A DNA stretch of 64,000 bases from the NCBI GenBank assembly GCA_963715195.1, contig CAVQRT010000003.1, positions 96,001-160,000 of the forward strand. Direction: 5' to 3'. Shown piece by piece: positions 17,082-48,916 of the stretch. This DNA is from Thermodesulfovibrionales bacterium (GTDB lineage: Bacteria; Nitrospirota; Thermodesulfovibrionia; Thermodesulfovibrionales; SM23-35). The position numbers were made by a program, and so were the translations under genes. Positions within the stretch are counted from its first letter, which is position 1, and each line of letters opens with the position of its first letter. A model generated the notes under the pieces. It had not been told where the DNA came from, made no database searches, and saw nothing but the letters and a program-made list of their open reading frames with translations.

Positions 17082-17192
17082 TTATATCCGTATCGTATCC
17101 CCGTCTTTCAGTATCCTGAGATTCTTGATCCTGAGGGCCTTCAGCTCACCTTTTATCATCTTGAAATACTGCGGCTTTAAGTGGGTAATACA
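17082..17192 (-). pseudogene. 3' remnant of a class II cNMP phosphodiesterase (paralog of 38627-39395)
   Basis: Translates to CITHLKPQYFKMIKGELKALRIKNLRILKDGDTIRI*, versus CITHLKPQYQGIIKNELKKLSLMHMRILKDGDTIRV* at the 38627 gene end. Confidence 0.85.
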
Positions 17193-17200
17193 GAAATTGC

Positions 17201-17305
17201 GAGGAGCTCTATGACATTATTTCGAATAATCTGAAAGATTTCGCCAACTTCATCAGGGAAATCGTGGCCTTTATCAGAGCATACGAATAGAACAAGACAC
17301 GTTAG
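17201..17305 (+). pseudogene. 3' remnant of a HEPN toxin paralog
   Basis: gaggagctctatgacattatttcgaataatctgaaagatttcg...agagcatacgaa aligns by eye with 15905-16012. Confidence 0.8.
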
Positions 17306-17309
17306 AAGC

Positions 17310-17531
17310 CTAAGCAAATCTTCCCGAGCAGCCGAACAGATAACCGGAAAGGGCTGCCTGCACAGGCCTGCTGTGCCGCAGTGCATAAAAAAATGGCGCG
17401 AGGCAGAACCAGGCAAAAGCACTCGCATCGAATGGTGGGAAAGAAGCAATGAGGAAGATGGCGGAGGCAACAGTCAGAAAGAAAAGAAACGTCATGCTCA
17501 TTTCTTTCAGCCTATATTGGTTAACCTCCAC
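17310..17531 (-). pseudogene. N-terminal fragment of an apolipoprotein N-acyltransferase (Lnt) paralog
   Basis: SAIFLIASFPPFDASAFAWFCLAPFFYAL...AALSGYLFG is the Lnt first-TM pattern, comparable to SATFLILIFPGFEMHYLAWIALVPLLIVI at 45161; truncated. Confidence 0.75.
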
Positions 17532-17599
17532 CCGTTGCTGGTTCGTTGTCTGTTCCCTTTCTCCATTAACCTTTCTTTACAGACATCCTCCTTTCGATA

Positions 17600-18106
17600 C
17601 TATTCTACTATAGCGAGTATAATGTCAACAGTCGTAAACAGCGTGTCACAACCGGGCTCGTTATTGCCATCGATTCCAAATCCGCAATCCGCGATTGTGC
17701 TGTAACCTTTCACCGCCCACGATTGATAAGAACTAAACACGCCCGGAATAACAGTATTATTGAGCCAGTTATACACAAAAGCGCTTTGCTCACTGGGGTC
17801 CAAGTAACACACAGGGGCTGATTCTCCCGAAGAGAATTTGTAGACACTAGAGCCTTTGGTCAACCGCAGGGAAACAACCATACTGACTTCATAATCATCA
17901 GGGCATTCGATACTTTCGCCGGGCTCTGCTAAGATCTCATAATGAGCGGTCATAGGACCAAAGACCTTTGTGCCGGCAGCACTCTTGTCCACGTAAGGGT
18001 CGAGAATAGTTCCCGCCGGTGTTTCAGAAGTCCGGCCTGCAAAGGTTAACTGTGCTACACCACATACTATGATTACAGCTAATACCACAACAAAAAGCCG
18101 TTTCAT
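17600..18106 (-). CDS. Secreted hypothetical protein (paralog of 45259-45749)
   Basis: Signal peptide MKRLFVVVLAVIIVCGVAQLTFA; shared motifs AAGTK..G and LRL.KGS; GGAGG RBS. Confidence 0.75.
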   Translation of the reverse strand: MKRLFVVVLAVIIVCGVAQLTFAGRTSETPAGTILDPYVDKSAAGTKVFGPMTAHYEILAEPGESIECPDDYEVSMVVSLRLTKGSSVYKFSSGESAPVCYLDPSEQSAFVYNWLNNTVIPGVFSSYQSWAVKGYSTIADCGFGIDGNNEPGCDTLFTTVDIILAIVE

Positions 18107-18201: not shown

Positions 18202-19042
18202 TTATTGCAGTTGCAACACTGCCTGGTCAGCAGGGGTGAACGCACTTCCGATATACCACGTCACCTTATCGTTTTTATTGGTGTAATACACTGACTGATC
18301 CAGAACCGTCGCTGATCCCGTCTTGTAATGGTACCCTCCAAAGCGTTTGTTGTATGTATCCGTGAGTACCATGTTATGGCCAACCTCATGCGCAATCGTA
18401 TGCTTGATGTATTTGTTGATTACAGCTGCACGTCCTATTGTAACTCCATCTGCATCCTTGCAATCTCCATCCGATACCGCCGGGCTACATACCGAATTCA
18501 CATGCCCTATTATCCGCGCCGTATACACAGTGGCAGAGAGTCCAGACCATTCGGTGTCCCATAGTTGGCAAAGCCAAGGACATCCGGTATAGGTCATATC
18601 CAGATCCTCGGTGATTTTTACGCCTTCTGTGGTGATGCCAGGCTGACCTTCTGTCAGGATATGCTTGCTCCGGGTAAGTCTCATGGGCAATGCCAGACCC
18701 ACCGTCTGCCTCCGGCGCGGTGATGTATGCCAGGGGCTCTGCGGTCATGTTGCTTGGCGCCTCTGGAACAAAAATCACAAACAGGTCCTTCGATTCGGGT
18801 CCAGACGATTTTCTCTCGGAACGGCCTCTGATGCACCAGCTACGATATCACCGCTCATAAGTGTTATTCCCTCACACTCCAGCTGGTCTGTAAACCCGTC
18901 TGCATCAAAATCATCTGCACCCGCTGTGGCACAGTCAACTGCGTACGCAGGCATGTGACCGAGGAGAATGGCCAATCCTAATGCCAACAACGTCATCAGA
19001 ATGTGGCTCTCTTTCTGATCTTATAATGTCTCCTTTGTCCAT
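18202..19042 (-). CDS. Secreted HExxH (zincin-like) protein, frameshifted (paralog of 45890-46768)
   Basis: ORF pieces 18775-18996, 18485-18778 and 18202-18702 join colinearly with the intact paralog; YIKHTIAHEVGH; ATG 19042 follows AGGAGG. Confidence 0.75.
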
Positions 19043-19178: not shown

Positions 19179-22100
19179 CTATTTCTTATGAATAATAATT
19201 GAACCACCTCCGATAATCGTTGCAGGGTCATCTGTATCAGGAGCACCCATCTTATTGTCATAGACAATCTGGTCAGTATCCTTGTCCCAAATCTTGATCC
19301 TGAACTTATCGTACCGTCCGCCGCCTTTATTTGACCGTCAATCGCGGTCAGCATGAAGCCGTAGTTTCCTGTGCCGTTGATTGTTCCGGTCACCTTTGTA
19401 CTGTGCTCTCGGTCCTGCAACTACAAGCCATTCATAAGAATCTGAATGGAATTTCAGATCTGCAACTTTGAACTGGAATTGAGTTTCGCCGGTCGGAATC
19501 GTCGCACCTTTCTTGTACTTGGATACGAATCCAAAGGTTGCTTTGCCAGTGAGGTCTGTATCGGCCGCGTAGGCTCCATCAGGTGAATCAATCCATCCCC
19601 CGCCGGTCACAAAACCGCCATCCGGATCATACACAACGATATATTCAAAACGCCCCGTGTCAGTTTCATCATGATTGTCTGTAACCGTGAGTGTTACAAC
19701 ATAGACACCGGGTGTACTATATTCATGTGAACCGGTCACTGTTCCGGAACCATTTGATTCATCGACAGTCCCAACCGTTGTCGAGTCGTCGCCCCAATCC
19801 CAAACAGCAGTGTGGACATCTTCGTATTAGCGTCTGTAAACTGTGCACTCGTTGATATGGTTGTATCTACTTGAACAGGATCAATTGGTGCTGTAATCAC
19901 ATCAACAACGGGTGGTACATTAGCTGAGATAACTCCAAAGCTTGCGCCTATTGTGTGATCGGTTGTCACATTGTGGAAGGTGTAGCTCGCGACCACACCC
20001 ACTGAAGTACCGTCGACAAGAACATCTACTATGTAACAGCCCTCTGCAGGCGAAATTGTAAATTCCTGACTTTCCCCCTCAGGAACCGCTGCATACACTG
20101 TCGGACTGATACTTCCATTAACGCATTCTGTCACTGTTATCACATAGGTATCCGCTGCGATCACGGTTACCGGGCTCTCCCCTGAGTGGATCGCCCCCAC
20201 CCACAGGTCTACACACGGTTCCGGCCCGCGATGTGCACACACCTGCGCCGGACAAGGTCAGGATCCGTAATGTAGTTCGAGTAGGTCGCCTCTACCGTGT
20301 AAGCCCCTACCCCCAGCACCGACGGATCGTACATATCCCTTAGGTCGCAGCTCACCGAGAACGACGCCCCCGCTGCCAGCGTCATTACGTCGTCCGGTAT
20401 CCCGTAGGCATGCCACACCCGGTCCCGCGGCGGCAGGACATCGCCCAGGCCGTCCCTCACCGTGAAGGTCGTGTTGTAGCAGTCAGGCGTGATGATCTCT
20501 ATCGCACTGCCGCTCTGGTTCCAGAAGATGGCCTCCACCATCAACGCCTCCCCTTCCCGCGTCGGTACAGCCGGCACCTCCAGTTCCTCGGTGTTTGCGT
20601 CACACGCATCGCCCAGCCCGTCGCCGTCACTGTCTGTCTGCGATGCATTGGCCACCAGTGGACAGTTATCATCAGGTCCGGTACCCCGTCCCTGTCTGTG
20701 TCGATGAGGTCTAATCCGCACAGTCCTGGTCTATCCCGTCATTTGGTATCTCGGCGACCGGGTTCAGGAGTACAGGTATAGGTGTGTACTCCTCCCGTGC
20801 GGTCTGCACCCCGGCTGCTGCCATGCTCCCACTCCACAATGTGCATCCCCATCCCAGCTCTCTCGAGCCGTGCTCCGTTAATGCATCCGGTCATGTCTTC
20901 GTGTCGCAGACCTCCGTCGCACCCGGGTGATCGAGCTGTACCGTCGTACAGTCATCCCCGCCGTAGGCAACCGAGATATATCCGTGTCGATCCCCGTCGA
21001 GCTCGCAAAGCTCGCCTCTATCGCATGATCAGCCGTGACGTTTATAAATTCATAGGTCGTTACTGCTCCTACTGATACCCCATCAACCAAGACATCCTCC
21101 ACGTGGTAGCCCGTATCAGGGGTTATGGTAAAGGTCTGGTTATTGCCCGAGGTTACCAGCACGTACCCTGACGGATCAGTCGGCGTAATGCTCCCGTTAG
21201 CACCCGCTGTCACTGTTATCACATAGGTATCCGCTGCGATCACGGTTACCGGGCTCTCCCCTGAGTGGATCGCCCCCACCCACAGGTCTACACACGGTTC
21301 CGGCAGCGAGTGCACACACCGCCCGGACAAGGTCAGGATCCGTAATGTAGTTCGAGTAGGTCGCCTCTACCGTGTAAGCCCCTACCCCCAGCACCGACGG
21401 ATCGTACATATCCCTTAGGTCACAGCTCACCGAGAACGACGCCCCCGCTGCCAGCGTCATTACGTCGTCCGGTATCCCGTAGGCATGCCACACCCGGTCC
21501 CGCGGCGGCAGGATGCTGCCCAGTCCGTCCCTCACCGTGAAGGTCGTGTTGTAGCAGTCAGGCGTGATGATCTCTATCGCACTGCCGCTCTGGTTCCAGA
21601 AGATCGCCTCCACCATCAACGCCTCCCCTTCCCGCCTCGGCACTGCCGGCACCTCCAGTTCCTCGGTGTTTGCATCACACGCATCGCCCAGCCCGTCGCC
21701 GTCTGTATCATCCTGCGATGCATTGGCCACCAGTGGGCAGTTGTCCTCTGTGTCCGGTACCCCATCATTGTCTGTGTCGATGAGGTCTAATCCGTCACAG
21801 TCCTGGTCTATCCCGTCATTTGGTATCTCGGCTACCGGTGTGCCAGGCGTACACGTGTCATCCTGTGCTCCGGCTGTACAGGTAAGTACTCCGGCTGCTG
21901 CACATGCTCCCACACCGCATGATGTCGCATCCCCATACCAGCTCTCTCCTGAGCCGTCCTCCGTTAATGCATCACAATCATTGTCTATCGTGTCGCAGAC
22001 CTCCGTCGCACCCGGGTTGATCGAGGCATCTGTGTCATCGCAGTCTGTATCGTCCGCCACATATCCGCCAGGTACAGTACACGCCTCGGTGCTCGCTGTA

Positions 22101-25100
22101 GGATCACCATAGGTGTCTCCATCGCTGTCCAGATAGAAGGTTGTCAAAACTCCGTTATCTACAACACCGTCACAGTCGTTGTCCAATCCGTCGCAGATCT
22201 CTGCCACCGATGTGCCGGGTGCGCAGGGAGTCTCAACTCCTGCCACGCAACTGCTCGGGGTATTATTGGTCAGGCACTCGCCAACTCCGCAGGTGTCATC
22301 TACAACGTAATCCTCATCAGCTGCACCATCGCAATCATCATCCACACCGTCACACGTGGCATCGTCTGCTGCCGGTGTGCCAGGAGTACAGGTATCAACT
22401 TGTACTCCTCCCGTGCAGGTCTGCACCCCGGCTGCTGCACATGCTCCCACTCCGCATGATGTCGCATCCCCATACCAGCTCTCTCCTGAGCCGTCCTCCG
22501 TTAATGCATCACAATCATTGTCTATCGTGTCGCAGACCTCCGTCGCACCCGGGTTGATTGAGCTGTCACCGTCGTCACAGTCATCCCCGCCGTAGGCAAC
22601 CGAGATATATCCGTCTCCATCCCCATCAGAGCTTGCAAAGCTCGCCTCTATCGCATGATCAGCCGTGACGTTTATAAATTCATAGGTCGTCACTGCTCCT
22701 ACTGATACCCCATCAACCAAGACATCCTCCACGTGGTAGCCCGTATCAGGGGTTATGGTAAAGGTCTGGTTATTGCCCGAGGTTACCAGCACGTACCCTG
22801 ACGGATCAGTCGGCGTAATGCTCCCGTTAGCACCCGCTGTCACTGTTATCACATAGGTATCCGCTGCGATCACGGTTACCGGGCTCTCCCCTGAGTGGAT
22901 CGCCCCCACCCACAGGTCTACACACGGTTCCGGCAGCGATGTGCACACACCGCCCACAAGGTCAGGATCCGTAATGTAGTTCGAGTAGGTCGCCTCTACC
23001 GTGTAAGCCCCTACCCCCAGCACCGACGGATCGTACATATCCCTTAGGTCACAGCGTCACCGAGAACGACGCCCCCGCTGCCAGCGTCATTACGTCGTCC
23101 GGTATCCCGTAGGCATGCCACACCCGGTCCCGCGGCGGCAGGATGCTGCCCAGTCCGTCCCTCACCGTGAAGGTCGTGTTGTAGCAGTCAGGCGTGATGA
23201 TCTCTATCGCACTGCCGCTCTGGTTCCAGAAGATGGCCTCCACCATCAACGCCTCCCCTTCCCGCCTCGGCACTGCCGGCACCTCTAGTTCCTCGGTGTT
23301 TGCATCACACGCATCGCCCAGCCCGTCGCCGTCTGTATCATCCTGCGATGCATTGGCCACCAGTGGGCAGTTGTCCTCTGTGTCCGGTACCCCATCATTG
23401 TCTGTGTCGATGAGGTCTAATCCGTCACAGTCCTGGTCTATCCCGTCATTTGGTATCTCGGCTACTGGTGTGCCAGGTGTACACGTGTCATCCTGTGCTC
23501 CGGCTGTACAGGTAAGTACTCCGGCTGCTGCACATGCCCCCACTCCGCATGATGTCGCATCCCCATACCAGCTCTCTCCTGAGCCGTCCTCCGTTAATGC
23601 ATCACAATCATTGTCTATCGTGTCGCAGACCTCCGTCGCACCCGGGTTGATCGAGGCATCTGTGTCATCGCAGTCTGTATCGTCCGCCACATATCCGCCA
23701 GGTACAGTACACGCCTCGGTGCTCGCTGTAGGATCACCATAGGTGTCTCCATCGCTGTCCAGATAGAAGGTTGTCAAAACTCCGTTATCTACAACACCGT
23801 CACAGTCGTTGTCCAATCCGTCGCAAATCTCTGCCACCGATGTGCCGGGTGCGCAGGGAGTCTCAACTCCTGCCACGCAACTGCTCGGGGTATTATTGGT
23901 CAGGCACTCGCCAACTCCGCAGGTGTCATCTACAACGTAATCCTCATCAGCTGCACCATCGCAATCATCATCCACACCGTCACACGTGGCATCATCTGCC
24001 GCCGGTGTGCCAGGAGTACAGGTGTCATCACCCCATACTCCAGCCGTACAAGTCTCTTCCCCAGTAGAAGCACAGGCGCCTATTCCACAAGTTGATGGAC
24101 GAGTAAGTTCTTCATCAGTACTTCCATCGCAGTCGTTATCTATGTTGTCGCAGCCCTCTGCAGTAGCACCTGCCAATGGATCACACGTGTCATCGCCCCA
24201 TACTCCAGCCGTACAAGTCTCGATTCCCGTGTTGCCTGCGCACTGGCCGACACCACAGGAAGTAATTTGGGTGATCCCGTCTATCGTTCCATCACAATCA
24301 TTATCTATGTTGTCACATACCTCGGTTGCACCCGGGTTGATTGATGAATCGCCATCATTGCAATCTTCTTCTGTAGCAGAGCCTGTACATCCAATTATTA
24401 CGCCTACTCCATAGGTGTCACCATCTACATCCAGACATGTATCCACAGGATCGCATATGCCATCTCCATCATCGTCAGGGCCCTGAGATGCATCTCCATA
24501 AACATTAGGAACATGACTAACAGGATCAAAATCAGAAATGCAGTTATCTGCAAGATAGAGGGTTTGTAAATTTATTAGACTACTTAGTGCTGCTATGTCA
24601 GATATTTGATTGCTGGATAGAACCAGAACAGTCAGACTGCTCAGATTTGACAATGCAGAGATGTCAGATATCTGATTGCTGCCAAGATTTAGATCAGTCA
24701 GACTGGTCACATTTGATAATGCTGCTATAGCAGCTATCTGATTACTGGATAGAACCAGCTCAGTCAAACTGGTCAAATTTGACAATAAAGAGATGTCAGA
24801 TATCAGATTGTTGTTCAGATAAAGATGAGTCAGACCGGTCACATTTGTTAATGCTGCTATATCAGCTATCTGATTGCTGGATAGAACCAGAACAGTCAGA
24901 CTGCTCAGATTTGACAATGCAGAGATATCAGATATCTGATTGCTGCCAAGATTTAGATGAGTTAGACTGGTCAGATTTGATAATAAGGAGATGTCAGATA
25001 TCAGATTAGCGGTTAGAACCAGAGTAGTCAGACTGCTCAGGTTTGACAATGGAGTGATGTCAGATATCTGATTGCTGTCTAGATAGAGAGTAGTCAGACT

Positions 25101-28100
25101 GCTCAGATTTGATAATGAAGAGATATCGGATATCTGATTGCGTGATAGAAGCAGAACAGTCAGACTGCTCAGATTTGATAATGAAGAGATATCAGATATC
25201 TGATTGGTGTCCAGATAGAGCTCAGTCAGACTGGTCACATTTGATAATGCTGATAAACCAGATATCTGATTGTTGTTCAGATTTAGATAAACCAGACTGC
25301 TCAGATTTGATAATGAAGAGATATCGGATATCTGATTGCTACTCAGATTCAGATGGGTCAGATTAATGGCATATTCGAGGCCTGTAAGATCAACGACTCC
25401 TTTATTAGTGGCACCAAGGGTAATTAAATTAAGCATGTCAGCAACAGTCGGATCAGAAACACCCAGTTCCGTCTCTATCGCTGCCTTGAGGTTTGCATCG
25501 GGGATATTAACCGGACAGGGATTATCAATAATGTCGTCGCAGTCATTATCCAACCCGTCGCACGTTGTCTCGGTAGCTTCGTAAGTTGCGATACCGCTGT
25601 AGTCATTAACCCAGCCGCCTGCCCCGCTACAGGTCTTAGTTGAGCCTGAGCAGACGCCGTCCTGCAGGTCATTGAGCGGAGCAGTAAGGCCGTTGTCAGT
25701 AGTTCCATCACAGTCATTGTCTAATCCATCACATATTTCAGCTCCAGGTGTTCCAGGTGTACACGAATCTTGTACAACTCCTGCAACGCAACTCGTTACG
25801 CCTGTTGATGCACAAGCACCTACTCCGCAGCTGGTGGCCGTCGATACATAGTCTTCATCAGCTACACCATCGCAATCATCGTCTGTACCGTCACACGTGG
25901 CATCATCTGCTGCCGGTGTGCCTTCAGTACAGGTATCAACTTGTACTCCTCCCGAACACGTAAGTTGACCAGCTGCTGCACATGCCCCCACTCCGCATGA
26001 TGTCGGATCTCCGTACCAGCTCTCATCAGAGCCATCAAGAGTACCTGCATCACAATCATTGTCTATCGTGTCGCATACCTCCGTTGCGCCCGGGTTGATT
26101 GAGGAATCGGTATCATCGCAGTCATCCCCCATAGGCCCTCATACCCATCACCGTCTGCATCGATATCACAGGCATCGCCTATACCATCCGTATCTGAATC
26201 TTCCTGGCCTGGATTGCTATCATCAGGACAGTTGTCACAGACATCGCCTATGCCATCACCATCCGTATCGCCCTGAGCAGGATTAATATCATCAGGGCAA
26301 TTGTCGCACAGATCGCCTATGCCATCAGTATCTGAGTCTGCCTGATCGGGGTTATAATCATCTGGACAGTTGTCAGAAGTATCACCAACGCCATCGCCCT
26401 GATATCGATAGATGTCCCAGGAACTGCCATTATATTTCTGCCAAACAATTCTATTTGAAAAGACAGTCGGGTAATAGTTAGCCGAGGAATCCGTTGTTAC
26501 TCGGTGAGGTGGTATTGCAGGCGTAGATAAATCATATTCGTAGATATCATAGTTACCGTGAGTGGAATCCTGCCAAACAATAATGTTCCCAGAGATAGAA
26601 GGTGCTTTTTGATCATAAATACTGTCGGTAATCTGGGTTTCAATCCCCGTCGAAATCTCATACATATAAATGTCCCATCGGCCATCCCTAAAATCTTGCC
26701 AGACGATTCGGTTTCCTGAGATTGTCGGTGCTTCTTGATTTCCTGGCTCATCGGTTATCCGGGTTTCAACCCCTGTCGAAATGTCATACAAAAAAATGTC
26801 ATAATTGCCATATCTGTCGTCCTGCCAGACGATTTGGTCTCCTGAGATAGCCGGTTGTGATGAAGTCGAAATGTCGGTAGTAGTATTGACCTTGGTCTCT
26901 ATCCCAGTAGATATATCATACAGGAACACGTCCCATCTGCTCGCGCCGTTATCATAATTGTAGACAATGCGATTTCCTGATATCCGCGGATAAGATTGTG
27001 TTTGTGCATCGGAAGTTATCCGAGTTTCAGCTCCGTCGAACATGTAAATGTCCGTATTGCCATGCCTGTTATCGTGCCAGACGATACGGTCACCTGAAAT
27101 AGATGGTCTCTCCTGACTTCCCGGGTCACTGGTTATCCGGCTTTCAGACCCGTCATATGAATAAATTTCAAAGTCGCCAACTCTGTAATCTTGCCAGACA
27201 ACCCTATCCCCCCAAATTGAACTTAAGACGAAAAAGCCGGTGTTGGTATCAGCAACATCTTCCCTAATCCGGGTCTCACTTCTGTCAGAGTCTCGGCTCT
27301 CATTGTCATCCAAAGGAAATGCATCATTGAGGTCATCTACTCCATCACCGTCTGAGTCTGAATTCAATGAGTTAGTCCCGAAGACTGATTCTTCATAATC
27401 CGTGAGTCCATCGCCATCATCATCTGCGTCTAAGCAATCATCTATCCCATCAGAATCAGTATCACCCTCGTCAACTTCACTATCACAGTCGTTGTCTATT
27501 CCATCGCATATCTCCGTAGCATCCGGATTTATGGATGAATCACCGTCATTGCAATCCCCCTCACATATCCTAAAGCCATCGGTGTCAGCATCCGCTTCAT
27601 CAATAGGCACTTCCGTGTCACAATCATTGTCTATCCCATCACAGAGCTCTGTTGCACCCGGATATGTATTGCCGTCATTGTCATCACAGTCAGTTTCAAG
27701 ACCGGTTAGCTCTGTTGAAACTTTATAACCCGCTGGTCTTTCACATGACGTGTTATCAACGGTTTGATCCGAGTATCCATCATCATCCGCATCTTTCCAC
27801 CAAGTCTGCCCAGGATGCTCGTTCGGATCAGCGTCATCACAATCAGTATTGTCAGCAACATATCCTCCTGGTGCAGAACATGCCTGAGTAGTTACCGAAG
27901 GATTGCCATAGGTGTCGCCATCGCTGTCCTGATAGAAAGTCATCAGAACTCCATTATCAACACTGCCGTCACAGTCATTGTCCAACCCATCACACGTTGT
28001 CTCGGTAACTTCATAAGTTGCAATACCGCTGTAATCATTAACCCAGCCGCCTGCGCCACTACAGGTCTTAGTTGAGCCCGAGCAGACGCCAGCCTGTAGG

Positions 28101-35010: not shown

Positions 35011-35373
35011 ATGTCGAATTACAGAAAACTGATCGCATGGCAAAAATCCGACGAGCTTGCTTTAATGGTATACAATGTTACGAAGAATTTCCCTAAGCAG
35101 GAGTTATTTGGTCTTACCTCGCAACTGAGGAGAGCAGCTCTTTCTGTACCCACAAATATTGTTGAAGGATATAATAGAAAAAGCAAAAAGGAATTACATA
35201 GATTTATTGATATCGCATTAGGTTCGCTTGCTGAAACTGAGTATTTAATAGAGTTTTCCCAAAAACTTGGCTATATAAAAGGTGATATTTCTCATATCGA
35301 AACCGCTATCGTTGAAATTGGCTTCAGCCTTCATCCTTCAGTGCTTTTTGCTCTTCAGCGCTTCAGGATTTGA
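35011..35373 (+). CDS. Four helix bundle protein (23S rRNA IVP / TIGR02436-like), C-terminus replaced by repeat-derived sequence
   Basis: YRKLIAWQKS, FPKQELFGLTSQLRRAALSVPTNIVEG, FIDIALGSLAETEY, LGYI. Confidence 0.85.
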   Translation: MSNYRKLIAWQKSDELALMVYNVTKNFPKQELFGLTSQLRRAALSVPTNIVEGYNRKSKKELHRFIDIALGSLAETEYLIEFSQKLGYIKGDISHIETAIVEIGFSLHPSVLFALQRFRI

Positions 35374-38300
35374 GCCCTGAGTGCTTCTGTTTCAGGTGAA
35401 GGCTCTAGTCCCAGCGCGGCAGAAGTTTTACGACGACGATTGTAAACCGCACGGGCTTCTGCTCTTCTTCCCATACGCTGATAGCGGCCATGAGTCGCTG
35501 GTAAAAGTTTTGGGCGAGGTCATCCACTTCAATGCCCTTGCGAAAAAGGGATTTTGCGCTTTGCACTTCTCCCCTCTTTTCGAAAAAAGGCCAGCCATCT
35601 CAATATTTGAAGAAATCTATTCTAGATGTTCACGAAAAGGATGCTACCCAGGGCTCACCTTCATCAGCCAAAAAATGCCCCGCATTAATTTCAAAGCTCT
35701 TGCGAAAGCGACATGATATTCAATTTGATTTCCCCTGTCATTCCTCCCGTCCAAACAGATCTTCCAAACGATTCAGAATTCTCTGCAGAAACCACGCATC
35801 AACCCAACAGCAACGGTCGATTGTTATTTTTCCATCACTGACGATCAGGGCTTTTTCACTGTGTCTCGGAGTTCACGGAGACGAGATAAGTAGGTTTGAA
35901 AGTGATATGACCGACCATCACCATATGCATCTAGCAGGAACATAAATGAGACGATCTTCTGAAACACCTTTTCCCTCCGCAAGCAATCACTGCTTTCAGA
36001 GCAGAAGCAGTTTCAATAGCACCTCCCCGGAGCCTCACGGGCTGCCCTGCTTTCCTAACCCAAACCGACCCAAGGTATTCAGTGTTTCCAACGGCCAGGG
36101 CCATCGTTCATCAACTGCAAGAAGTATCTGGAGAAGGTGGTCTTGTTTCTTTCGAATAGGAGTCTTTATATATTTTTCTTCAATTCCATGCTCAGTGCTT
36201 TCGTGAGGACAGTTTCCAGAGACACAAGGTTCAAGAGGCATCAATAGATTCATCGATCCTTTTTCTCGTCCTTTCTTCATCCCCTTGCGTATTGCCCTGA
36301 GAGCAGGCACTTCTTTTCCCTTCCTCAGGTAGAAGTATGCCTCAGTAAACAACAGGATGAAGGGCACAAATTCATTGTTGCTTTGCAATCCCAATGGTGT
36401 GAGCTCGTGAAAGACTTTTGAATGCCTGATTATTCTCCCCAAAGGCATTTGCAAGATAGGCTTTCCAGTACATAGGCGACAGAAGGGGTCCATGGATTAC
36501 CGATATCTTCACACAGCCTCAGACATTCTTCAGCATGAGTTGATGTTTGAGAGAGACTACCCTGATACAAGGCTACCCAGGCAGCACAGTAATGGTTGAA
36601 ACTCTTCTCCCAAGGCTTCATCAGGCTTGATGCAGAGATCATTTTTTGAAGACCGCTTTGCCTGAGGACTATTTCCACTTTTTAATGAGCTGATTAACCG
36701 TGTCCCAACAGCATATGTTCCATAACTCTGATTTTAAGGGATCGTGCCAGTTCAAGACCTTTCGACAACCACGTTCCCGCATTGTTTTTACATCGACATC
36801 ACATTAAAAAAAGCGGCCCCGAACCAGATCACAGTTAATATAATCAATGGAGGTGCATCATACCGTTCAATCATGCCCTGCAACGTTTCGAGGGCAATCT
36901 GCAATGCGCCGATTCGCCTAAACTATACAGGTAACTGGCCTCAGCAGTTGACATCATTATTTTCTGATATTCTTCCGAGGTCCTGTCAGTGATGGTGCGG
37001 ATGCAGTTTACCCATTTCTCCGCATCAATAGTTTGAGGTTTCCTCAGGTGAGTATCTTAAAGACGCTTAACACGACTTCGACCTCGGTATCTTCAGAAGG
37101 AATCCCCCATACTGTTGTATCATCCGTTCGCCTTCTTTTACCGAATTGGTCAAGCGATTTCAGACTTCTGGCCGAGTATGATCGATTCCACAGCCCGGCC
37201 CATGCCAGAAAAGACGCTGCCGCTTCATGAGATTCCCGAAAATCATAAAGTGCCTTCTCGAATACCTGCTGGCTCTATCTGGAAAACGGCATTCTGGATA
37301 CGCCTGACCAGGTAGAGCGACCAAGGATCAGCAGGTACAGCTTCTTCAGGAACAATGACCAGCCAGTTTTGGAGCGTCCCGTCTTTCCTGTCTTGTTGAG
37401 GACGGTGCCCATTTTAGAAGATAATGGATATCAGACTTTTTACGTCTCCAGATTCATGAATCAAACGAACGGCATCTTCTGCATGTTCTCATTCTTCAAG
37501 GAGCATTGCGGAATCATGTTTGATCATCGATGACTTGGCTGGGTCCAATGCACTTTTTGCCATGGAAAGTAAAAACTGCCCGGAAAAGCTGGTGATACCG
37601 GTAAGAAGTGCTTCCCTTCAATATTTTTTCGTGTGAGTATTCCTCTATAAAAAAACATCCCCTGATCAGGTCGTCCAGGATGGTATCGACATGTTTCATA
37701 CGAGTAAGTTTAGCGGCCATGTCACTACTCATTACAGGTAAGAAGCATGTCCTGAGCAAGAAGTCCTGCGTATTCTTGTCTGTCTTGAAAAAAACCTCTT
37801 GACCAAAATAGTCAAAGATATTCTGTGACGAAACCGGGACAGGTAGTCTCTCGTTATGAGACTCTGCATCGCTGCTCTTAAGAAAAAGCATGAGCCCGGC
37901 AGCCCAGCCGTTTGTCTTATCAAAAAGAGCACGAAAAACATTTTCCGGAAACCCACCCGGCATCTCCTTCTCAATGAGGTCCCTTGTCTCTTCCACAGTA
38001 AACTTCAGTGCATCCCAACCAATAATATGAGCCGACCCATGAACGATAAGACGTGCGAATGCAGGCGGTGGGTCCTTTCTGCTCAAAATGAAAAAGGTAA
38101 AACCTTCGGGAACCCCTCGTAATACATTGGCGATAATTGCATGAAACCTTGAACTGGCAGGCATTTCATGATAGTTGTCAATAACAAACATAAAAGGTTT
38201 ATTGATTCTGCTAAAGATTGCCTCGAAATAGCGATGGGAAAAAATAAGATCTCCACGTGCATGTTCAGCCGTATAGCGGGGCAATAGATGCCTTTTCTTA

Positions 38301-38605
38301 GGAAATAATTTCCGAAGGGCAATTTCCGTATAATAAAAAAGGTCCCAATGTCTTTATCTCCTTCATCGACCGAATACCATAAACAGGGAATATTGCGGTC
38401 AGATGCATAACTTGAGACAAGCGAAGTCTTGCCTGATCCGGGCCGGGCTCACGACAAAAGTTACCGGTGATTTTCTGCTGTTGTCGAGAATTGTGAAAAG
38501 TCGCCGTCGTGGCAGTATTCCAGCCACAGCAGGGCGGGCTATTTTCGGGAATAAAAGGAATCGTTTTTTGGTACGATTATTTTTTATCCCATCTATTCCC
38601 TCCAT
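35355..38605 (-). pseudogene. MalT-like ATPase/TPR + BTAD (SARP-type) transcriptional activator, heavily disrupted
   Basis: KIARP...LPRRRLF...SPA (Walker A region), FVIDNYHE, ILSRKDPP, TNGWAAGL, IFDYF, YRYHQLFR, WPWPL...LGRF; C-terminal GIEVDDLAQNFYQRLM...GRRAEA...LGLEPSPETEAL. Whether the decay is real or sequencing error is unresolved. Confidence 0.75.
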
Positions 38606-39543: not shown

Positions 39544-39563
39544 AAACATTAATTTATGTTGCT

Positions 39564-42260: not shown

Positions 42261-43514
42261 TTAAAAATAGACCTGCAGCCCTAATCCTATGTATTGAGAC
42301 TTAAAGATATTATTTGAACCGGCAAATCTGTTTCGATATGAAATGGAGCCAGTGAGGGGAACCGGGAATTTTTTTGCCATATAGAGCGGCAATGTCGAAT
42401 AGGATAATGTGCCGATAAAAACGTGTTCTGTATAATCAGTTTCATCTTCCAGTGATTTGTATGCATATCCTTTATTACCTGAAACATCATCTTTCAAGGC
42501 AAATCCGTATTTATAATTTAAAGTCGCATCAAATCCAGGTGTTATGGTGTATTTCCCTGACACATCAATTTCAATAACATCACCGATGTCCCTATCAACT
42601 TTCTCCTTGTTAGCAGTAATTGGCAGGTCTACATCATCGGGGATTCTTAATTTTTCATGATCAGGCAATATCAAATCATATCTGAATGTTGCGTTGAGCA
42701 CCAAATTCTTTATGCCGGTGTAATCATTGTTTAAACGGAAAAGCAGTGCATAGGCACCAGTTCCTATTGGATAGGCAGTTAAATCATCAGGATCGTCTAT
42801 CTCACCGCTTGGAAACCTCACCCCTCCGGTAAAAGCAAGCCTCCAGTTGTCCGTCTTCAAATATTGATATCTGGCTCCCAATTCAATATCACCTATACCG
42901 TTATTCTTAAAAGTTCCGAACTCCTTATATCCGAAACCGGGAACGTCAATAGTCCCATCCCCATTGATATCAAGGCCCTTAGCTAAAAGAGCTATGACAT
43001 CCTTTTTCGTCAGGGGAACTGTTCCCGGACAGCGAGGGGGACAAGGTTATTTAAAGCAGCATTTTTACCGAACGGTTGCAGCAGAGGTATCCAGACTCGA
43101 TTTCACCTCATTCTTCACCCACCAATACGGCAGTAAAATTCCCACCGAGAGCTTGTCAGTTACACCGTACATGAAGGTCATTTCCGTTATTGTGAAGTAA
43201 TAATCAAACGAAACATCAGTTCTCCCAAGATTTGCGGATCCCGGCGGCATGCCGAAAAAATCTTCTATAAGGCTTAAATCAGTAAAGACGGTGCTATCCA
43301 AAGTGGTATTGTAATCTGTTGCTACGTCCTCGGTATCGCCATCAGGGTCATAACGCTCATTGATCTTGAAATAAAACTTGCCGTCGAGGCTGATATTTGC
43401 CACCCCCTTAGGCAACACTTCAGCGCTGTCGGCATAACAAATAGCAGCGATTGCCAAAAAGATGAGACAGATTAAGAAGCTACTTCCATACATCATGCGT
43501 CCTCGCCTTTTCAT
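42261..43514 (-). CDS. Outer-membrane beta-barrel (putative transporter), frameshifted
   Basis: Signal peptide; YGVTDKLSVGILLPY; GIGDIELGARYQY; GGVRFPSG; amphipathic C-terminus GLGLQVYF ending in Phe. Confidence 0.7.
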
Positions 43515-43565
43515 GGTTTTCCCCCTTTTTTGAATTCTCATTGACCATTATATAACATCATGTGC

Positions 43566-45161
43566 CTATTTCAAGAAATATTTACGAACAAGTTCATTCC
43601 ACACAATCATACCGATCACCAGTAAAGAAATAATATAAATAAACCAATCGCCGTATCTGTTGTAAAAGGACCTTTCCGAAGTCAACGGAATTTGCCCCAC
43701 CAGGTATCCCTCGACATCGACGTCTCTTCCCGCTTCGTCCTTGACCCTGCCCACAATCCGCCCGTTCGGTTCGATAATACATGAGACACCGGTCGAAGCA
43801 GTCCTCGCAATAGCCACATGATTTTCGACAGCCCGAAGAACGCTCATCGCTGTCATTTGATAATGTGCTGCCGGAACACGTGTAAAACCTTCATTCGTCA
43901 TGTTGACCATAAAGTCAACCCCTTTTGAAGACATCTCCCGGAATTGATCAGGAAACATATATTCCCAGCAGATGAGGACCCCGAATGTTGTTCCGTTCAT
44001 GTTGAAAATGGTTAATTCATTGCCCGGTTCATGGTCCGTAATATCCGAGATAATCCATGAGGGCCACTTTAGATACTCTCGCATAGGCAGGTATTCATCA
44101 AAGGGAAGGAGGCGTATTTTATCATACCTTCCTATATTTCTCCCTTCCGGTGAGAAAAGAAAGGCAGAATTCGCAACTCTTTTTTTCTTTCTCTTATCCC
44201 TGCTGAACTTATCAAAGCCGCTCGACCCGATTAGAAGGAAATTGCCTGTTTGTTGCGCCAATTCAGAAAGCATTTTGAATCGTTGCCAGTCGTAGGGAAT
44301 CCTTCCGGGCACCGACGAAGAAGGCCACAAGATAAGGTCGGGTTTCGACTCCGCCGCACGCAGCGTTTGATCGGAGTATTTCTGAAAAATCCCCTCCCTG
44401 TACGTAGCATCAAACTTATATTTATCAGTCCAGTACCGGTCGTCCCAGTAAACGTTCCCCTGTACCAGAGCACCTTTCAGAGAAGGAAAACGTTTAGCGT
44501 CCCGCCAAGACAAAGACCCGGAGAAGACAGATAATGCGAATACGGCCAAAACAGCAGCAGCAAGCAGGAATAAGGATCTTCTCAAACTTATTGTCCCAAG
44601 TATTCCCTGAGGAATACTCAAACGAGAAGAAAGAATCGATTCGGTAATTTCTGCGATAACAGTATTCACCGCAACGATCAGAAACGAAACACCGTAAACC
44701 CCCGTGAAAGCGGCAACCTGGATAACAGGAATGACAGAATACTGCGAATATCCCAAAATCCCCCAGGGCCATGATAAAAAACCCACGTGGCTTCGTAAAA
44801 ACTCAAGAGCAACCCATACTGATGGAAAAGTAAGGACATTCCACTTTGGATACTTGTTGTGAAAATAGTGCGCTAAATATCCGAACAAGCCAAAGTATAA
44901 TGCAACACCCACTAATGTAATGCTGAAATGGAGCAGATTGAAAGACTCTATTTTCAGCACCCACCACTGGAGACCGAAATTGAACACGAGACTTGCAGCC
45001 ATTGATGACAGGCATGCCCCGAGAGGGCCTGCTTGCCTGATAACAATAAGAAGGGGCACAAGGGCTATCCAGGCTAAATAGTGCATCTCGAAACCCGGGA
45101 AGATCAATATGAGAAAAGTTGCAGAGAGGAATACTGAACTTATAATGAAAAGGACTCTCAC
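43566..45161 (-). CDS. lnt: Apolipoprotein N-acyltransferase-like protein with altered active site
   Basis: AWIALVPL, WVALEFLRS, PWGILGYSQ, GVYGVSF, LVQGNV, YDKIRLLPFDEY, LICWE, RAVENH, TGVSCII; WPSS where Lnt has WPES. Confidence 0.85.
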   Translation of the reverse strand: MRVLFIISSVFLSATFLILIFPGFEMHYLAWIALVPLLIVIRQAGPLGACLSSMAASLVFNFGLQWWVLKIESFNLLHFSITLVGVALYFGLFGYLAHYFHNKYPKWNVLTFPSVWVALEFLRSHVGFLSWPWGILGYSQYSVIPVIQVAAFTGVYGVSFLIVAVNTVIAEITESILSSRLSIPQGILGTISLRRSLFLLAAAVLAVFALSVFSGSLSWRDAKRFPSLKGALVQGNVYWDDRYWTDKYKFDATYREGIFQKYSDQTLRAAESKPDLILWPSSSVPGRIPYDWQRFKMLSELAQQTGNFLLIGSSGFDKFSRDKRKKKRVANSAFLFSPEGRNIGRYDKIRLLPFDEYLPMREYLKWPSWIISDITDHEPGNELTIFNMNGTTFGVLICWEYMFPDQFREMSSKGVDFMVNMTNEGFTRVPAAHYQMTAMSVLRAVENHVAIARTASTGVSCIIEPNGRIVGRVKDEAGRDVDVEGYLVGQIPLTSERSFYNRYGDWFIYIISLLVIGMIVWNELVRKYFLK

Positions 45162-45192
45162 GATATGATCATACTTTATTAATCTGTATCAT

Positions 45193-45222
45193 GTAAAATG
45201 CCCCGTAAACGGGGCATTTTAC
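45193..45222. terminator. Perfect hairpin, probable bidirectional terminator
   Basis: gtaaaatgccccg-taaa-cggggcattttac. Confidence 0.75.
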
Positions 45223-45258
45223 CATAACCATATTCGGATTTAGTCAGACCGAATGTAT

Positions 45259-45749
45259 CTATTTCACAGCAAGCTCAACATCAAATACAGCGTAAAAGGC
45301 AGGAGGGAAGTGACAACATCTACCTGAGCAAATTGCTTTGCAGATTTCAAGGAAACTGTCAGATCGGTATCACCTCCAAAAAATGCATCTATAACCTGTG
45401 GTGCCATTGCTTCAGTAATTTCCGCCTGGTTCAACGCAATATCGTTAATAAGAACTCCTTCTGCCGTGCCATAGAGAAGTACTGGGTCACCGCTTCCCTT
45501 CTGTAATCTCAACACGATCTTTGCATCAGCAATGCTATTAAGAGGATTACCTCCAGGTATCTCGACGTTGTAATATTCTATACAGATAACCCCGTTCAGT
45601 TTTGTCCCGGCTGCATCGGACTGATATGCCATCCCGTGTGGGGGATCACCAGTGTCTGCCTGCTGAGGTGCCCCTGAGCCTCCATATGCCAGTGAGCACG
45701 TAAAGGCTATTACCAAAAGGACCATTCCTATGTTCTTTAGCTGTTTCAT
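45259..45749 (-). CDS. Secreted hypothetical protein (paralog of 17600-18106); likely frameshift near the 3' end
   Basis: Signal MKQLKNIGMVLLVIAFTCSLAYG; AAGTKLNG, LRLQKGS; an alternative frame ends AVFDVELAVK*, like the paralog's TVDIILAIVE*. Confidence 0.72.
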
Positions 45750-45889
45750 TTCCTTACTCCTTTCTTCTTGTATTTTTCCTCGATTGAGGGAAGATCTTCT
45801 CTCCCTCAATCACTGTCTCTAAATTCTTTACATGAATGATCCTGTAACCACCTCCTCTTTGCTGTATTCATACCCCATCTCTTTCTCTG

Positions 45890-46768
45890 CTACTGCAGCG
45901 TCACATCTGCCCGGTCAGCCGATGTATAACCCGTCCCGATATACCATGTGACCTTTCCGCCCTTGTTTGTGTATTTGATTGATTGATCAAGGATGACCCC
46001 TGTGCCGCTCTTGTAGTGATAGCCTCCGAACCGGCTGTTATAAGACGAGGTCAGCTGCATCAAATGCCCCGCCTCGTGTGCTATCGTGTGATTGATGTAT
46101 TTGGCATAAAGTTCAGGACGCTCAACTCCTGTGCTGTCCTGACACTGGCTTGCGCCAGTACACACGTCGTCAATGAAATTTATGATCCGCTGCGTGTAAA
46201 TGGTTGAGTAGTCCAAACCGTTCGGTGTCCCATAGTTGGCAAAGCCAAGGACATCCAAATTCGAAACATCCAGACTCTCCGTAATCATGATCGCCTTCTG
46301 CTGCGATGCCGATGTGACTCTCCTGTCAGCATCTGCTTGACCCGGATCAAGTTGGTGAGCAGCAATTCCAAGACCCCCGTCTGCCGCGGTCTTGGTGATG
46401 TATGCCAGGGGATCTGCGGTCATGTTGCTTGGCGCCTCTGGAACAAAAACCACAAACAGGTCCTTCGAATCTGGATCCATACGGTCTGGTCTATTCAATC
46501 CACTATTGGCCCCAGGGAAATGACTCATGTCAGAAAATCCCTCACACTCCAGTTGGTCCGAAAACCCGTCTCCATCAGCATCCTCTAACGGACTAGGACC
46601 TGCAGTGCAGTCCACCAGTGCGTAGGCAGGCACGCTGGAAAGACACAAAGCCAAAGCAAGGACGAGTATAATCATCAGCCAGGAATACTTCCATAAACTG
46701 AAAAAATTTCTCATACCTAAGCTATAGACAACTCGCTTTTCTGTTCTGTAACCATTCTTCTTAAACAT
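45890..46768 (-). CDS. Secreted HExxH (zincin-like) protein with a DxDGDG Ca-binding motif
   Basis: Signal ending PAYA; DADGDGFSDQLE; DPDSKDLFV; YINHTIAHEAGH. Confidence 0.8.
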   Translation of the reverse strand: MFKKNGYRTEKRVVYSLGMRNFFSLWKYSWLMIILVLALALCLSSVPAYALVDCTAGPSPLEDADGDGFSDQLECEGFSDMSHFPGANSGLNRPDRMDPDSKDLFVVFVPEAPSNMTADPLAYITKTAADGGLGIAAHQLDPGQADADRRVTSASQQKAIMITESLDVSNLDVLGFANYGTPNGLDYSTIYTQRIINFIDDVCTGASQCQDSTGVERPELYAKYINHTIAHEAGHLMQLTSSYNSRFGGYHYKSGTGVILDQSIKYTNKGGKVTWYIGTGYTSADRADVTLQ

Positions 46769-46842
46769 TTTTCCTCTCCTTATCTATATGATTACTGTTC
46801 AATCAAGTCTCTCCTTGGAATTTCTCCATTCTTCCTTTTTCC

Positions 46843-48916
46843 TTATTTCTTATGAATTACGATCGACCCACCGCCGAGAGCAGTAGTGGGTTCAGCCGAT
46901 TCATCAGCGCCGATCATATTGTCGTAAACGATCGTGTCAGCATTATTTTTATCCCAAATCTTGATTCTGAACTTATCAGTCCTCCGCCTCCGTTGATCTG
47001 GCCGTCAATCGCCGTAATCATAAACCCGTAGTTGCCTGAGCCATTAATCGTTCCAGTGCCTTTATACTTTGCCCTTGCGCCGGCAATCACAAGCCAATCA
47101 TAAGAAGAAGAGTGGAAAGTCAGATCCGCAACCTTGAACTGGAACTGAGTTTCGCCAGTTGGAGCGGTAGCACCTTTCTTATATTTGGATACGAATCCAA
47201 AGGTCGCTTTGCCAGTAAGACTTGGATCGGCTGCATAAGCTCCGAGAGGTGAATCGATCCAGCCCCCGCCAGTCACAAAACCACTACTGGCATCATACGT
47301 CACCACGTATTGATAAGTGGCCTCACCGCTTCCTCCCCGGTTATCCTGAACTTTCAGCTTAAGCGTATATACTCCAGGGACACTATATGTATGAGTGCCT
47401 CTGGCCACGCCAGTGCCAGCTCCCTCATTAACTATCCCCTCGCTGTCTGAACTATCTCCCCAGTCCCATGTCGCGATGTGCGTATCAGCAGTATCACCGT
47501 CGGTAAAGTTCGCGCTGACCGATACGGCTAAATTCGACGCAACCGGTTCCGACGGAGCAGTGATATCACCAACTACCGGATTATTGTTTTCGGTAGGAAT
47601 TATTGTGATAATAGTTTCTGGAGAACTGATTGCCCCCACCCACAGGTACGCACATGGATCCTGCAGTGGTGTGCACATTCCGCCCACAATGTCAGGATCC
47701 GTAATATAGTTCGAGTAGGTTGCCGTAATACCATATTGACCCCCGATGAGCACCTGCGAATCGTACATTTCATCAAGATAACAGCCAGTCACCTTGTAAC
47801 ATTGTTCCGCGTCTAGGGTCATAACGTCTGTCGGTATTCCATAGGCTCGCCATACCCTGTCCTTTGGAGGTAGGATATAACGTAAACCATTCAATATATA
47901 CTCAGCTGAGAAAGTCGTATTGTAGCATTCAGGCGTAATAATATCGATTGCTAAGCCACTATCATTGCAGAACTGCGCTTCAACCAATATCTGACTTCCT
48001 TCATTTATGGGTCCCGTCGGCACCGCAATAGTCTCTGTCTTACCATCACAAGCATCTCCAAGGCCATCTCTATCCTGATCTCCTTGATCTGGATTAGGGG
48101 CAGTCGGGCAATTGTCGCAGGCATCTCCTATTCCATCTAAATCTTCGTCTTTTTGATCAGGATTGTAAATTGATACACAGTTATCAACATCATTACAGAC
48201 TCCATCGACATCCGCATCAGGACAGATTCCTGCAATTTTGGATGAAAGGACCGACCCTATTGCACTTCTCTGAGGTGTTTTCGTCAGGAGGACCAAAACC
48301 TCCGCAGGTTGCATCCCGAGAGGGGTATCCGCCGCAAACTCTATAGCAAAAGACGGCAAGGCAGAATATGGACTTTCAATACCTACAAGAGCACCCGGCG
48401 AGAAATAAAAAGTATCCATTTGCGATATCCAGTTCCATTGCACATATGCCTGAGTACCGTCATCAACATAGACTATTTCCCATGCACTATTACTGCAATA
48501 ATAGGTACCGGGTCCATTAATGCCCTTCGTGTAAGCAGTCCCTCCCGTTGGAACATAAAAAGGTGGCACTGCAGATGTATTAAAAAACCCGACCGGTTCG
48601 TATATCCCGATAACTTGACTGCCAGGCTCAATACAATTCTAAAAGACTTTATCCCATAAGCTGAAGTATTCCACATGTCATACTGAATACGTTTAACTCG
48701 GTATAGGCGATTGTGGACAAAAAGAGAGCAATTTTCATCGAGGTATCCCGTCAAATTAGGAGAGTCACTCACATAACCAACTTCAACAGTACCTAAGTCC
48801 CCTTTGAAAGTTGTTTCCGTGCCTCTCAGCGCACTAGCAGTATTTGCCAACAGTAAAAGAGAGATCACACTACAAAAAACAAAAACGAAATTTTTCAACT
48901 TCATGCATCTGTTCAT
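46843..48916 (-). CDS. Secreted protein: TSP3 repeats + unknown domain + PKD + C-terminal domain (short paralog of the giant protein's C-terminus), frameshifted
   Basis: [29 protein letters not shown]...[21 protein letters not shown]...[15 protein letters not shown]; ends [10 protein letters not shown] at 46843. Confidence 0.78.

Follow-up and report, generated by a model that had tools for sequence, protein, structure and literature searches.

A conserved cassette pairing an Lnt paralogue with a PDZ-membrane receptor points to a possible acyl-protein sensing system in several bacterial phyla

The window analysed here is a stretch of 64,000 nucleotides from a Thermodesulfovibrionales bacterium (phylum Nitrospirota; GCA_963715195.1, contig CAVQRT010000003.1, positions 96,001 to 160,000). 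It is part of contig C3 of an assembly of 2.8 Mb in 36 contigs that is 97.8% complete with 6.6% contamination. The window harbors a gene cassette in which a paralogue of the acyltransferase Lnt lies between the genes for a small secreted protein and an outer-membrane barrel, followed by a membrane receptor and a phosphodiesterase (PDE) for cyclic nucleotide monophosphates (cNMP). Two copies are found in tandem on the minus strand. The gene order that an earlier reading, made from the letters alone (the sequence-only reading), had given for copy B is correct:

46843..48916, minus strand: surface protein with signal peptide, TSP3 repeats, a cassette-specific domain of ~125 aa, PKD and a post-COAP-1 C-terminus; frameshifted
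45890..46768, minus strand: secreted metzincin-like protein (zincin) with a DxDxDG motif, HExxH, a third His ~16 residues on and Leu at the Met-turn position
45259..45749, minus strand: small secreted protein, predicted cut between AYG and GSGAP, candidate for N-acylation; a single frameshift close to the 3' end
43566..45161, minus strand: dedicated Lnt paralogue (LntB), intact, WPSSS; S281 (E267 position), K348, D355, E356 and C398
42261..43514, minus strand: outer-membrane barrel of COG4313/FapF-like type, ending in Phe and carrying a P[TS]G motif; frameshifted, with intact versions on contigs C4 and C5
39564..42054, minus strand: receptor with a first transmembrane segment (TM1), RseP/HtrA-like PDZ, multi-pass region, GAF and class III adenylyl cyclase; frameshifted, intact with 833 aa on C4
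38627..39395, minus strand: metallo-beta-lactamase-fold, class II-like cNMP PDE; frameshifted, intact with 255 aa on C4

Copy A is a diverged paralogue in the same order, also as first read, and consists of the following pieces:

19179..32278, minus strand: giant surface protein, ~4,300 codons, with beta-helix, LamG, Big_5, MopE/TSP3 repeats, beta-propeller and LRR
18202..19042, minus strand: zincin paralogue, HEVGH; frameshifted
17600..18106, minus strand: small secreted protein, intact, predicted cut between TFA and GRTSE
17310..17501, minus strand: 5' fragment of a diverged lnt paralogue
17201..17307, plus strand: 107 bp of a hepT-like gene, inverted, where the deletion is joined; 81% identity to 15905-16014
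17082..17213, minus strand: 3' fragment of a PDE paralogue, last ~43 codons

The two zincins share 39% identity (tblastn), and the lnt fragment of copy A, about 60 codons long, has 37% identity to LntB over 52 aa. The giant protein also contains three cassette-specific domains, PKD and the same post-COAP-1 end as the surface protein of copy B. A tandem unit of 1.63 kb in its gene (20100-24089; two copies at 96% and a partial third at ~90%) multiplies the cassette-specific domain. Copy A is without most of lnt, the barrel and the cyclase. There the lnt fragment is followed by the hepT-like piece and then by the PDE tail, and since that piece is inverted between the two fragments the junction is complex. 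The deletion is present only in the haplotype of the window. Two small contigs of the same assembly, C4 and C5, are alternative haplotypes of the island. C5 matches window positions 25843-47456, mostly at 92-96% and at ~81% towards the zincin and surface-gene end, while C4 covers 38627-44477 with 86% identity, and its end lies in the hydrogenase flank that copy A also has. The sequence-only reading had named a misassembly of one copy as a finding that would undo it. The paralogues are diverged and C5 carries the B-to-A tandem junction too, and therefore a simple misassembly as source of the duplication is rejected. A promoter and terminator scan remained at chance level (25 vs 21.3 and 12 vs 10.7).

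The same cassette order recurs in uncultured bacteria, in metagenomes and in genomes of Nitrospirota, Desulfobacterota, Myxococcota and Planctomycetota, and is kept across these four phyla at 25-50% identity. The proposal that this is a dedicated, conserved multi-gene system thus gained support: in searches seeded on Lnt, the barrel, the zincin and the receptor, homologues were co-located rather than scattered away from lnt, cyclase and PDE genes. A DNA pattern for the Lnt loop motif retrieved 38 metagenome loci, namely 22 with a WPS/PFD Lnt (near-duplicates included; about 17 are distinct), two with a WPE/PFD Lnt in a barrel-less cassette, ten with an Lnt outside any cassette and four without Lnt. 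The small gene is found upstream in 15/15 of the WPS/PFD loci that extend at least 500 nt upstream, and the barrel comes next in 17/17 of those with at least 300 nt downstream. An Lnt-seeded scan of GTDB contigs is dominated by housekeeping Lnt and provides controls rather than the range of the system. Among the 80 loci listed the receptor is present at nine (Desulfobacteraceae, Desulfobulbales, Desulfobacterales, Deltaproteobacteria, Myxococcota, Scalinduaceae and two further bacteria); the other 71 are ordinary lnt loci with no small, zincin, barrel or receptor genes. A barrel profile matched 4 of 400 other genomes of the same phylum at five loci, and all five have an Lnt, a small secreted open reading frame (ORF) and a cyclase receptor. 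In another phylum the zincin profile matched 2 of 401 genomes, each time within a full cassette. The zincin was found in 0 of 40 relatives and 1 of 400 genomes of the window's own phylum; zincin diversity amounts to 411 clusters at 50% identity. The cassette system is rare and patchy, yet diverse.

Searching with a receptor profile yielded 21 matches, spread over 14 of 401 genomes. Twelve of these lie directly beside an Lnt and one more within 6 kb, which suggests that Lnt beside receptor is the deepest link of the cassette. At L013, L021, L139 and L171 the lnt and receptor ORFs overlap or abut. The barrel, which the sequence-only reading had counted as a cassette part, keeps that place at the WPS loci just described but is missing from the cassettes L021, L110, L118 and L148. 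A secreted protease is nearly always encoded upstream, be it the same zincin, another zincin, a subtilase or a motif-dead homologue, and cNMP-binding proteins recur nearby. The RbbA-type HlyD/ABC/TolC genes of the window (53733-60307) are not conserved; HlyD/ABC queries found a match at 1 of 40 cassette loci and TolC plus permease at 0 of 40. In the cassette of one relative, insertion sequence elements interrupt the barrel and receptor genes (L140:8391-9725 and 12360-13486).

LntB matches PF20154 and PF00795 and scores above the TIGR00546 cut-off. Its model shows the full Lnt topology (pLDDT 84.8; TM-score 0.72-0.78 to E. coli Lnt in Foldseek), and the loop with Asp355 has a pLDDT of 59-64. 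In unrooted trees 37 cassette Lnts and one more on a short contig are placed on one side of a branch with support 98, opposite 76 others. The latter include the housekeeping Lnt of this genome, which is encoded on contig C30 and groups with Nitrospirota records. An IQ-TREE subset of 21 vs 26 Lnts likewise gave a branch support of 98. Among the 120 closest proteins K335, E343 and C387 are invariant, while the E267 column reads S88, A9, D1 and E22 (register checked against P. aeruginosa Lnt). The window LntB has Ser at the E267 position and Asp at the G342 position. In E. coli Lnt both positions are essential and E267A and G342A are inactive (PMC5500890), and hence the Ser/Asp variant is either rewired or altered in function. 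By raw counts an acid at the G342 position accompanies S/A in 88/97 proteins and E/D in 1/23. Compensation of the lost Glu by this Asp may be regarded as a lead only. The sequence-only reading had taken the WPS-type Lnt as a mark of the cassette. This is true of a derived subclade, to which the motif is limited, whereas the basal cassette Lnts keep WPE and so have the first Glu. A second, deeper clade of six Lnts (WPEN/WPEY) also stands beside the receptor, at L173, L175, L177, L181, L183 and L184. Several of these loci adjoin response-regulator or kinase genes.

The signal peptides of the small proteins end in A-x-A-type sites, as used by signal peptidase I. After cleavage, sites being placed by alignment and a home-made rule, the +1 residue is Gly in 26 of 36 aligned homologues, including both window paralogues; it is Gly in the C4 paralogue as well. 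When the rule was applied blindly, Gly +1 was found in 11 of 20 small-protein clusters vs 4 of 105 zincin clusters (Fisher p 9e-8, with kin that are not independent). The barrel proteins serve as contrast, with D or E at +1 in 10/10. None of 37 small proteins has a lipobox, and no Cys lipoprotein is encoded in the window's cassette. The model of an 83% identical homologue (pLDDT 87.8) begins with a low-confidence coil tether up to residue 48, followed by five long strands and a helix. A tether leading to a folded domain is the usual layout of lipoproteins. The small protein belongs to no Pfam or NCBIfam family, its best Atlas score is 0.77, and its model has no Foldseek match at E 0.001 and a best Z of 5.6, a lack of matches that does not show a new fold. 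Copy B and C4 share the barrel (99%, C5 allele) and the PDZ domain (81%) but have exchanged, as a set, the small protein (28% identity), the zincin and the membrane half of Lnt (46%). The joint exchange of small protein and Lnt membrane half fits an enzyme-substrate pair. The precedent is AatD, which acylates CexE on a signal-peptidase-I-exposed Gly in a Gly/Ser-rich N-terminus (PMC7943197).

The receptor starts with a transmembrane segment and an RseP/HtrA-like PDZ domain, in which the carboxylate-loop position is an invariant Gly; a multi-pass region, a GAF domain and an output domain follow. The intact allele has PDZ, GAF and cyclase and no CHASE2. Class III adenylyl cyclases rely on two metal-binding Asp, a Lys and a Thr that specify adenine, an Asn and an Arg. 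All six are present in the C4 allele and in most cassette receptors. At position 40001 a single base turns the adenine-specifying Lys into Glu in the window, while C4 and C5 have Lys; this may be either a sequencing error or a specificity variant. Elsewhere the output is exchanged for SpoIIE (L013, L015, L018, L021 and L030) or a histidine kinase (L057), and genes for STAS and anti-sigma kinase proteins adjoin the SpoIIE-type receptors. The idea of envelope-to-cNMP signalling in the sequence-only reading is thus only partly retained. A dedicated system is supported, but one that is not restricted to cNMP, given that SpoIIE or a histidine kinase can form the end of this PDZ-membrane-GAF receptor. 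The membrane-plus-GAF region (residues 157-605) matches TIGR02916, the PrsK model, at E 7e-16, with 58 bits for the cyclase form and 129 for the kinase form against a cut-off of 300. No exosortase or PEP-CTERM match was obtained among the proteins scanned.

In its intact C4 allele the barrel scores 28.2 bits with PF13557 (cut-off 22). The P and G of the P[TS]G motif are invariant in 10/10 barrels, and the C-terminal residue is Phe. COG4313 channels have been proposed to import amphipathic molecules (PMC4493636), and SphA imports sphingosine. Structurally the nearest relative of COG4313 is FapF, which exports proteins and depends on a protease in the periplasm (PMC5557850). For the cassette barrel, searching the PDB by sequence retrieved no relative. 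No Pfam family passes for the zincin; its Atlas neighbours carry Reprolysin_3 in up to 52% of members, and for the region around its motif serralysins come out best in the PDB, though weakly (E 0.2-0.7). Metzincins are defined by HExxH, a third His and a Met-turn. HExxH is present in 147/150 zincin homologues, with the next His mostly 15-17 residues on and not 6, and the Met-turn position is Met in 84 and Leu in 25 of the 150. The three relatives without HExxH read QEKGH, MEIGH and MEIAH. Processing by the zincin, a possible step in the sequence-only reading, cannot be obligatory, because such motif-dead homologues are kept and unrelated zincins or subtilases take the place elsewhere.

The surface protein varies freely. 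It usually contains the cassette-specific domain of ~125 aa, which occurs up to four times in zincin-bearing cassettes. We had considered this domain as a BsuPI inhibitor domain, an idea without Pfam support that was dropped. In many cassette surface proteins a second C-terminal domain, ending in K-x-G-I-S-I-Y-G and without Pfam match, replaces post-COAP-1 (L008:8774-9253, L013, L094, L097, L104, L114, L115 and L142). In two cassettes (L008:12135-14145 and L115:1216-3210) the gene ahead of the surface gene codes for a membrane protein rich in TPR repeats. From its architecture we take it to be TMTC-like, and it could possibly glycosylate the surface protein.

Almost all cassette genes in the window are frameshifted, the exceptions being lntB, zincin B and small gene A. 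Intact versions of the receptor (833 aa), PDE (255 aa) and barrel (417 aa) are found on C4; C5 has an intact MalT/BTAD regulator and, of the giant protein, the first 1,253 aa. C4 and C5 are themselves broken, at other positions. Between the window and intact alleles the ratio of nonsynonymous to synonymous substitutions (dN/dS) is 0.03-0.09 for cyclase, PDE and barrel, and each of these genes has 0-1 nonsense substitutions vs 2-21 frameshifting indels. Because the substitutions show purifying selection, with few nonsense changes and many indels, the frameshifts are most likely long-read errors. Short-read contigs of relatives are without several of the window's indels. No sequencing run contained more than 9% of the window's words; the four compared with the window are contigs of relatives and do not prove error, habitat or expression. 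Pseudogenisation of copy B is disfavoured by dN/dS, with the exception of the MalT-like gene (dN/dS 0.60, 56 frameshifts), whose breaks may be noise or decay.

Taken together, we tentatively favour a scheme, at somewhat less than even confidence, in which the Lnt paralogue N-acylates the small protein and the PDZ-membrane receptor senses the acylated product and switches an exchangeable output. The enzyme would modify the N-terminus, usually Gly, that signal peptidase I exposes. The acyl donor would be a phospholipid, as in AatD, and Cys, Lys and the second Glu would still be active where the first Glu is Ser. Through its lipid tag the small protein would reach the inner membrane on its outer face and so lie beside the receptor, which would read it or a fragment of it and switch the output, here adenylyl cyclase. 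The barrel could move the amphipathic product across the outer membrane through a lateral gate at P[TS]G and thereby set the ligand level at the receptor. The PDE would reset cyclic AMP (cAMP), and the neighbouring cNMP-binding, MalT-like and PilZ proteins might feed back on the giant surface protein and the protease. The overall job would be to monitor and regulate the deployment of a surface adhesin/protease module.

Several observations weigh against this scheme. The first catalytic Glu is Ser or Ala in 97/120 close homologues, that of the window included, and the AatD equivalent of E267A is inactive (PMC7943197). For the pairing of Glu-to-Ser with Gly-to-Asp the tree offers only five independent pairs, none of them opposite, which is not significant (p 0.25-1), and L013, L014 and L021 have S/A without the acid and are counter-examples to compensation by Asp. 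The +1 Gly is invariant in CexE and Aap but not in the cassette, where the remaining ten of 36 proteins have A4, K2, R2, S1 and V1. No small gene was seen at the six loci of the second Lnt clade, and 8/21 receptor matches have no Lnt in the flank examined. Since the PDZ domain stays at 81% where the small protein falls to 28%, the receptor does not seem tightly matched to the fold of the small protein. Identity correlations of the small protein with every partner are similar and modest (0.35-0.47).

The main competitor keeps the acylation and moves the purpose. The acylated small protein could be a lipid anchor or adaptor that displays the protease and the giant protein via the barrel, in the manner of Aat or Fap, with the receptor sensing something else, for example unassembled barrel C-termini or the lyso-phospholipid by-product of Lnt. 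The export function and protease requirement of FapF (PMC5557850) agree with this, as do the recurrence of the cassette-specific domain, up to four times, in surface proteins of zincin-bearing cassettes, the retention of motif-dead zincins, and the RseP/HtrA-like PDZ next to barrels that end in Phe. However, several cassettes are without the barrel, a conserved ABC or TolC partner is lacking (1/40 and 0/40 cassette loci, as above), and the receptor is tied more constantly to Lnt than to barrel or surface genes. We consider such an anchoring role unlikely. Because it shares the acylation step with the scheme favoured above, acylation of the small protein as such is probable. A bolder version of the sensing scheme, an acyl-protein hormone system, is rather doubtful: a rewired Lnt (Glu to Ser, Gly to Asp) would make an N-acyl-glycyl protein or lipopeptide that a dedicated barrel exports and that is read by a widespread family of PDZ-multi-pass receptors with cyclase, phosphatase or kinase outputs. 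If true, the hypervariable small proteins would serve as signals specific to a strain, by which giant adhesins are controlled.

In another reading the Lnt paralogue does not act on the small protein. The barrel would import an amphipathic amine or amide, which Lnt, as a subunit of the receptor, would bind or process; the Ser-bearing Lnts may then be pseudo-enzymes. Import of amphipathic molecules has been proposed for COG4313 channels (PMC4493636), six Lnt-receptor pairs have no visible small gene, most close homologues have lost the first catalytic Glu, and one Lnt-less receptor (L187) stands beside an ORF that by eye reads as MBOAT acyltransferase-like. Such a co-receptor is distinctly improbable, since catalytic Cys, Lys and second Glu are invariant in 120/120, the small gene lies directly upstream of lnt in 15/15 informative WPS loci and exchanges with the Lnt membrane half, and the Gly enrichment would be left unexplained. 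There is a slim chance that the small protein instead inhibits the metzincin-like protease encoded beside it, in the manner of Inh/AprI and by means of a free Gly/Ser tail at its N-terminus, any acylation switching the inhibition off and the receptor sensing protease-released peptides. I38 inhibitors close the active sites of serralysins with their N-terminal residues 1-5, which a beta scaffold carries (PMC9486555), and here the small gene follows that of a zincin with serralysins as best, if weak, PDB matches near the motif. But the model, a five-stranded sheet with helix that has no clear fold match, does not have the eight-stranded I38 barrels among its top matches, the tether is ~25 residues long compared to ~10 in I38, and small genes are still found next to motif-dead zincins and, in L015 and L030, next to subtilases. 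Finally, the genes could be grouped by shared transfer and not by function, with LntB a second canonical Lnt in a variable island. The patchy occurrence given above, the flanking toxin-antitoxin genes and the passing TIGR00546 score would allow this. It is largely refuted and very improbable in view of the order conserved over four phyla at 25-50% identity, the separate Lnt clade, small proteins without lipobox, and the 71 of 80 listed control lnt loci without cassette genes.

Known systems share parts of this arrangement. In Aat/Cex, too, an Lnt homologue is found next to a small Sec substrate that lacks a lipobox, has a signal peptidase I site and begins with Gly at +1 in a Gly/Ser-rich stretch (PMC7943197, PMC8689077, PMC13622617). 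The cassette differs in having no AatPABC (ABC/TolC) inside either copy, a COG4313-like barrel in its place, and in addition a membrane receptor and second-messenger enzymes; E-K-E-C is not fully kept, the first Glu often being Ser or Ala, while the enzyme has the full Lnt topology. With canonical E. coli Lnt (PMC5500890) the cassette Lnt shares the fold, TIGR00546, K335, E343 and C387, but it forms a separate clade alongside the housekeeping Lnt of the genome, and E267 and G342 are Ser and Asp. Fap, too, combines in one operon the genes for secreted substrates, a secreted protease and a barrel that is related to COG4313 and has a PTG-type motif (PMC5557850). Here the protease is metzincin-like and not C39, no C39 peptidase having been found in Pfam scans of the cassette proteins, the small protein is predicted to be globular, and Lnt and receptor are added. 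NsrA-CyaK of Sinorhizobium meliloti likewise transduces a protein signal by an outer-membrane barrel and an inner-membrane adenylyl cyclase (PMC7529298), whereas the sensor of the cassette is PDZ plus multi-pass instead of CHASE2, an acyltransferase is included, the outputs are exchangeable and the ligand would be self-made. The histidine kinase PrsK of PEP-CTERM systems is distantly related in the membrane-plus-GAF region and also sits with surface-protein genes. In contrast, the cassette receptor stays far below the TIGR02916 cut-off, adds a PDZ domain and has a cyclase, SpoIIE or kinase output. In eukaryotes the acyltransferase GOAT produces acylated ghrelin, a polypeptide that is read by the membrane receptor GHSR. 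This pair and the bacterial RcsF-IgaA resemble the cassette in logic alone, and no homology is claimed.

The literature searched contains no description of an Lnt-receptor operon, in line with the sequence-only reading, which had not recognised the system; most subscription papers and supplementary tables lay outside that search. We know of no bacterial system in which an acyltransferase is hard-wired to a receptor with exchangeable outputs. On genomic evidence alone, the cassette is therefore rated as new at the system level. Its parts come from known families, while the arrangement fails the defining tests of Aat/Cex, Fap, NsrA-CyaK and PrsK. Glycine N-acylation in bacteria is known from one enteric secretion system. 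The cassette points to Lnt chemistry being used a second time, independently and in several phyla, in connection with signalling and not only with export. It also provides candidates for the ligands of a so far uncharacterised family of receptors whose outputs are exchangeable. The Ser-bearing Lnts would be a natural test of whether the general base of the nitrilase fold is dispensable or replaceable. Annotation pipelines call the enzyme an ordinary Lnt, and thus the system is invisible in current annotations.

Some genes around the two copies might belong to the same circuit as accessory parts or candidate effectors:

50714..53097, minus strand: FAD oxidoreductase and cNMP-binding/GAF protein upstream of copy B; candidate effectors
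35340..38535, minus strand: MalT-like/BTAD transcriptional regulator between the copies; accessory; heavily frameshifted, limits approximate; intact with 1060 aa on C5
32822..34722, minus strand: PilZ-domain protein together with a Ser/Thr kinase that binds cNMP, upstream of copy A; accessory, candidate effectors

A fused homologue of the FAD oxidoreductase and the cNMP-binding/GAF protein lies downstream of the PDE in L101, L107 and L113. The island is flanked, in the window and on C4, by a [NiFe] hydrogenase (11413-14597, plus strand) whose small subunit of 628 aa is fused to two cNMP-binding domains, possibly a cAMP-controlled hydrogenase. The toxin-antitoxin cargo at one site differs between haplotypes. 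In the window it is MNT-HepT plus Fic/HTH (15142-16713), and on C4 (L008, 260-630) a short pair that looks HicAB-like by eye, beside a repeated element found elsewhere in the genome. A four-helix 23S rRNA-IVP/bAvd-like gene is inserted between the MalT-like and PilZ genes (34972-35373, plus strand); a stretch of 457 bp with this insert is 100% identical in C5, with flanks at ~93%.

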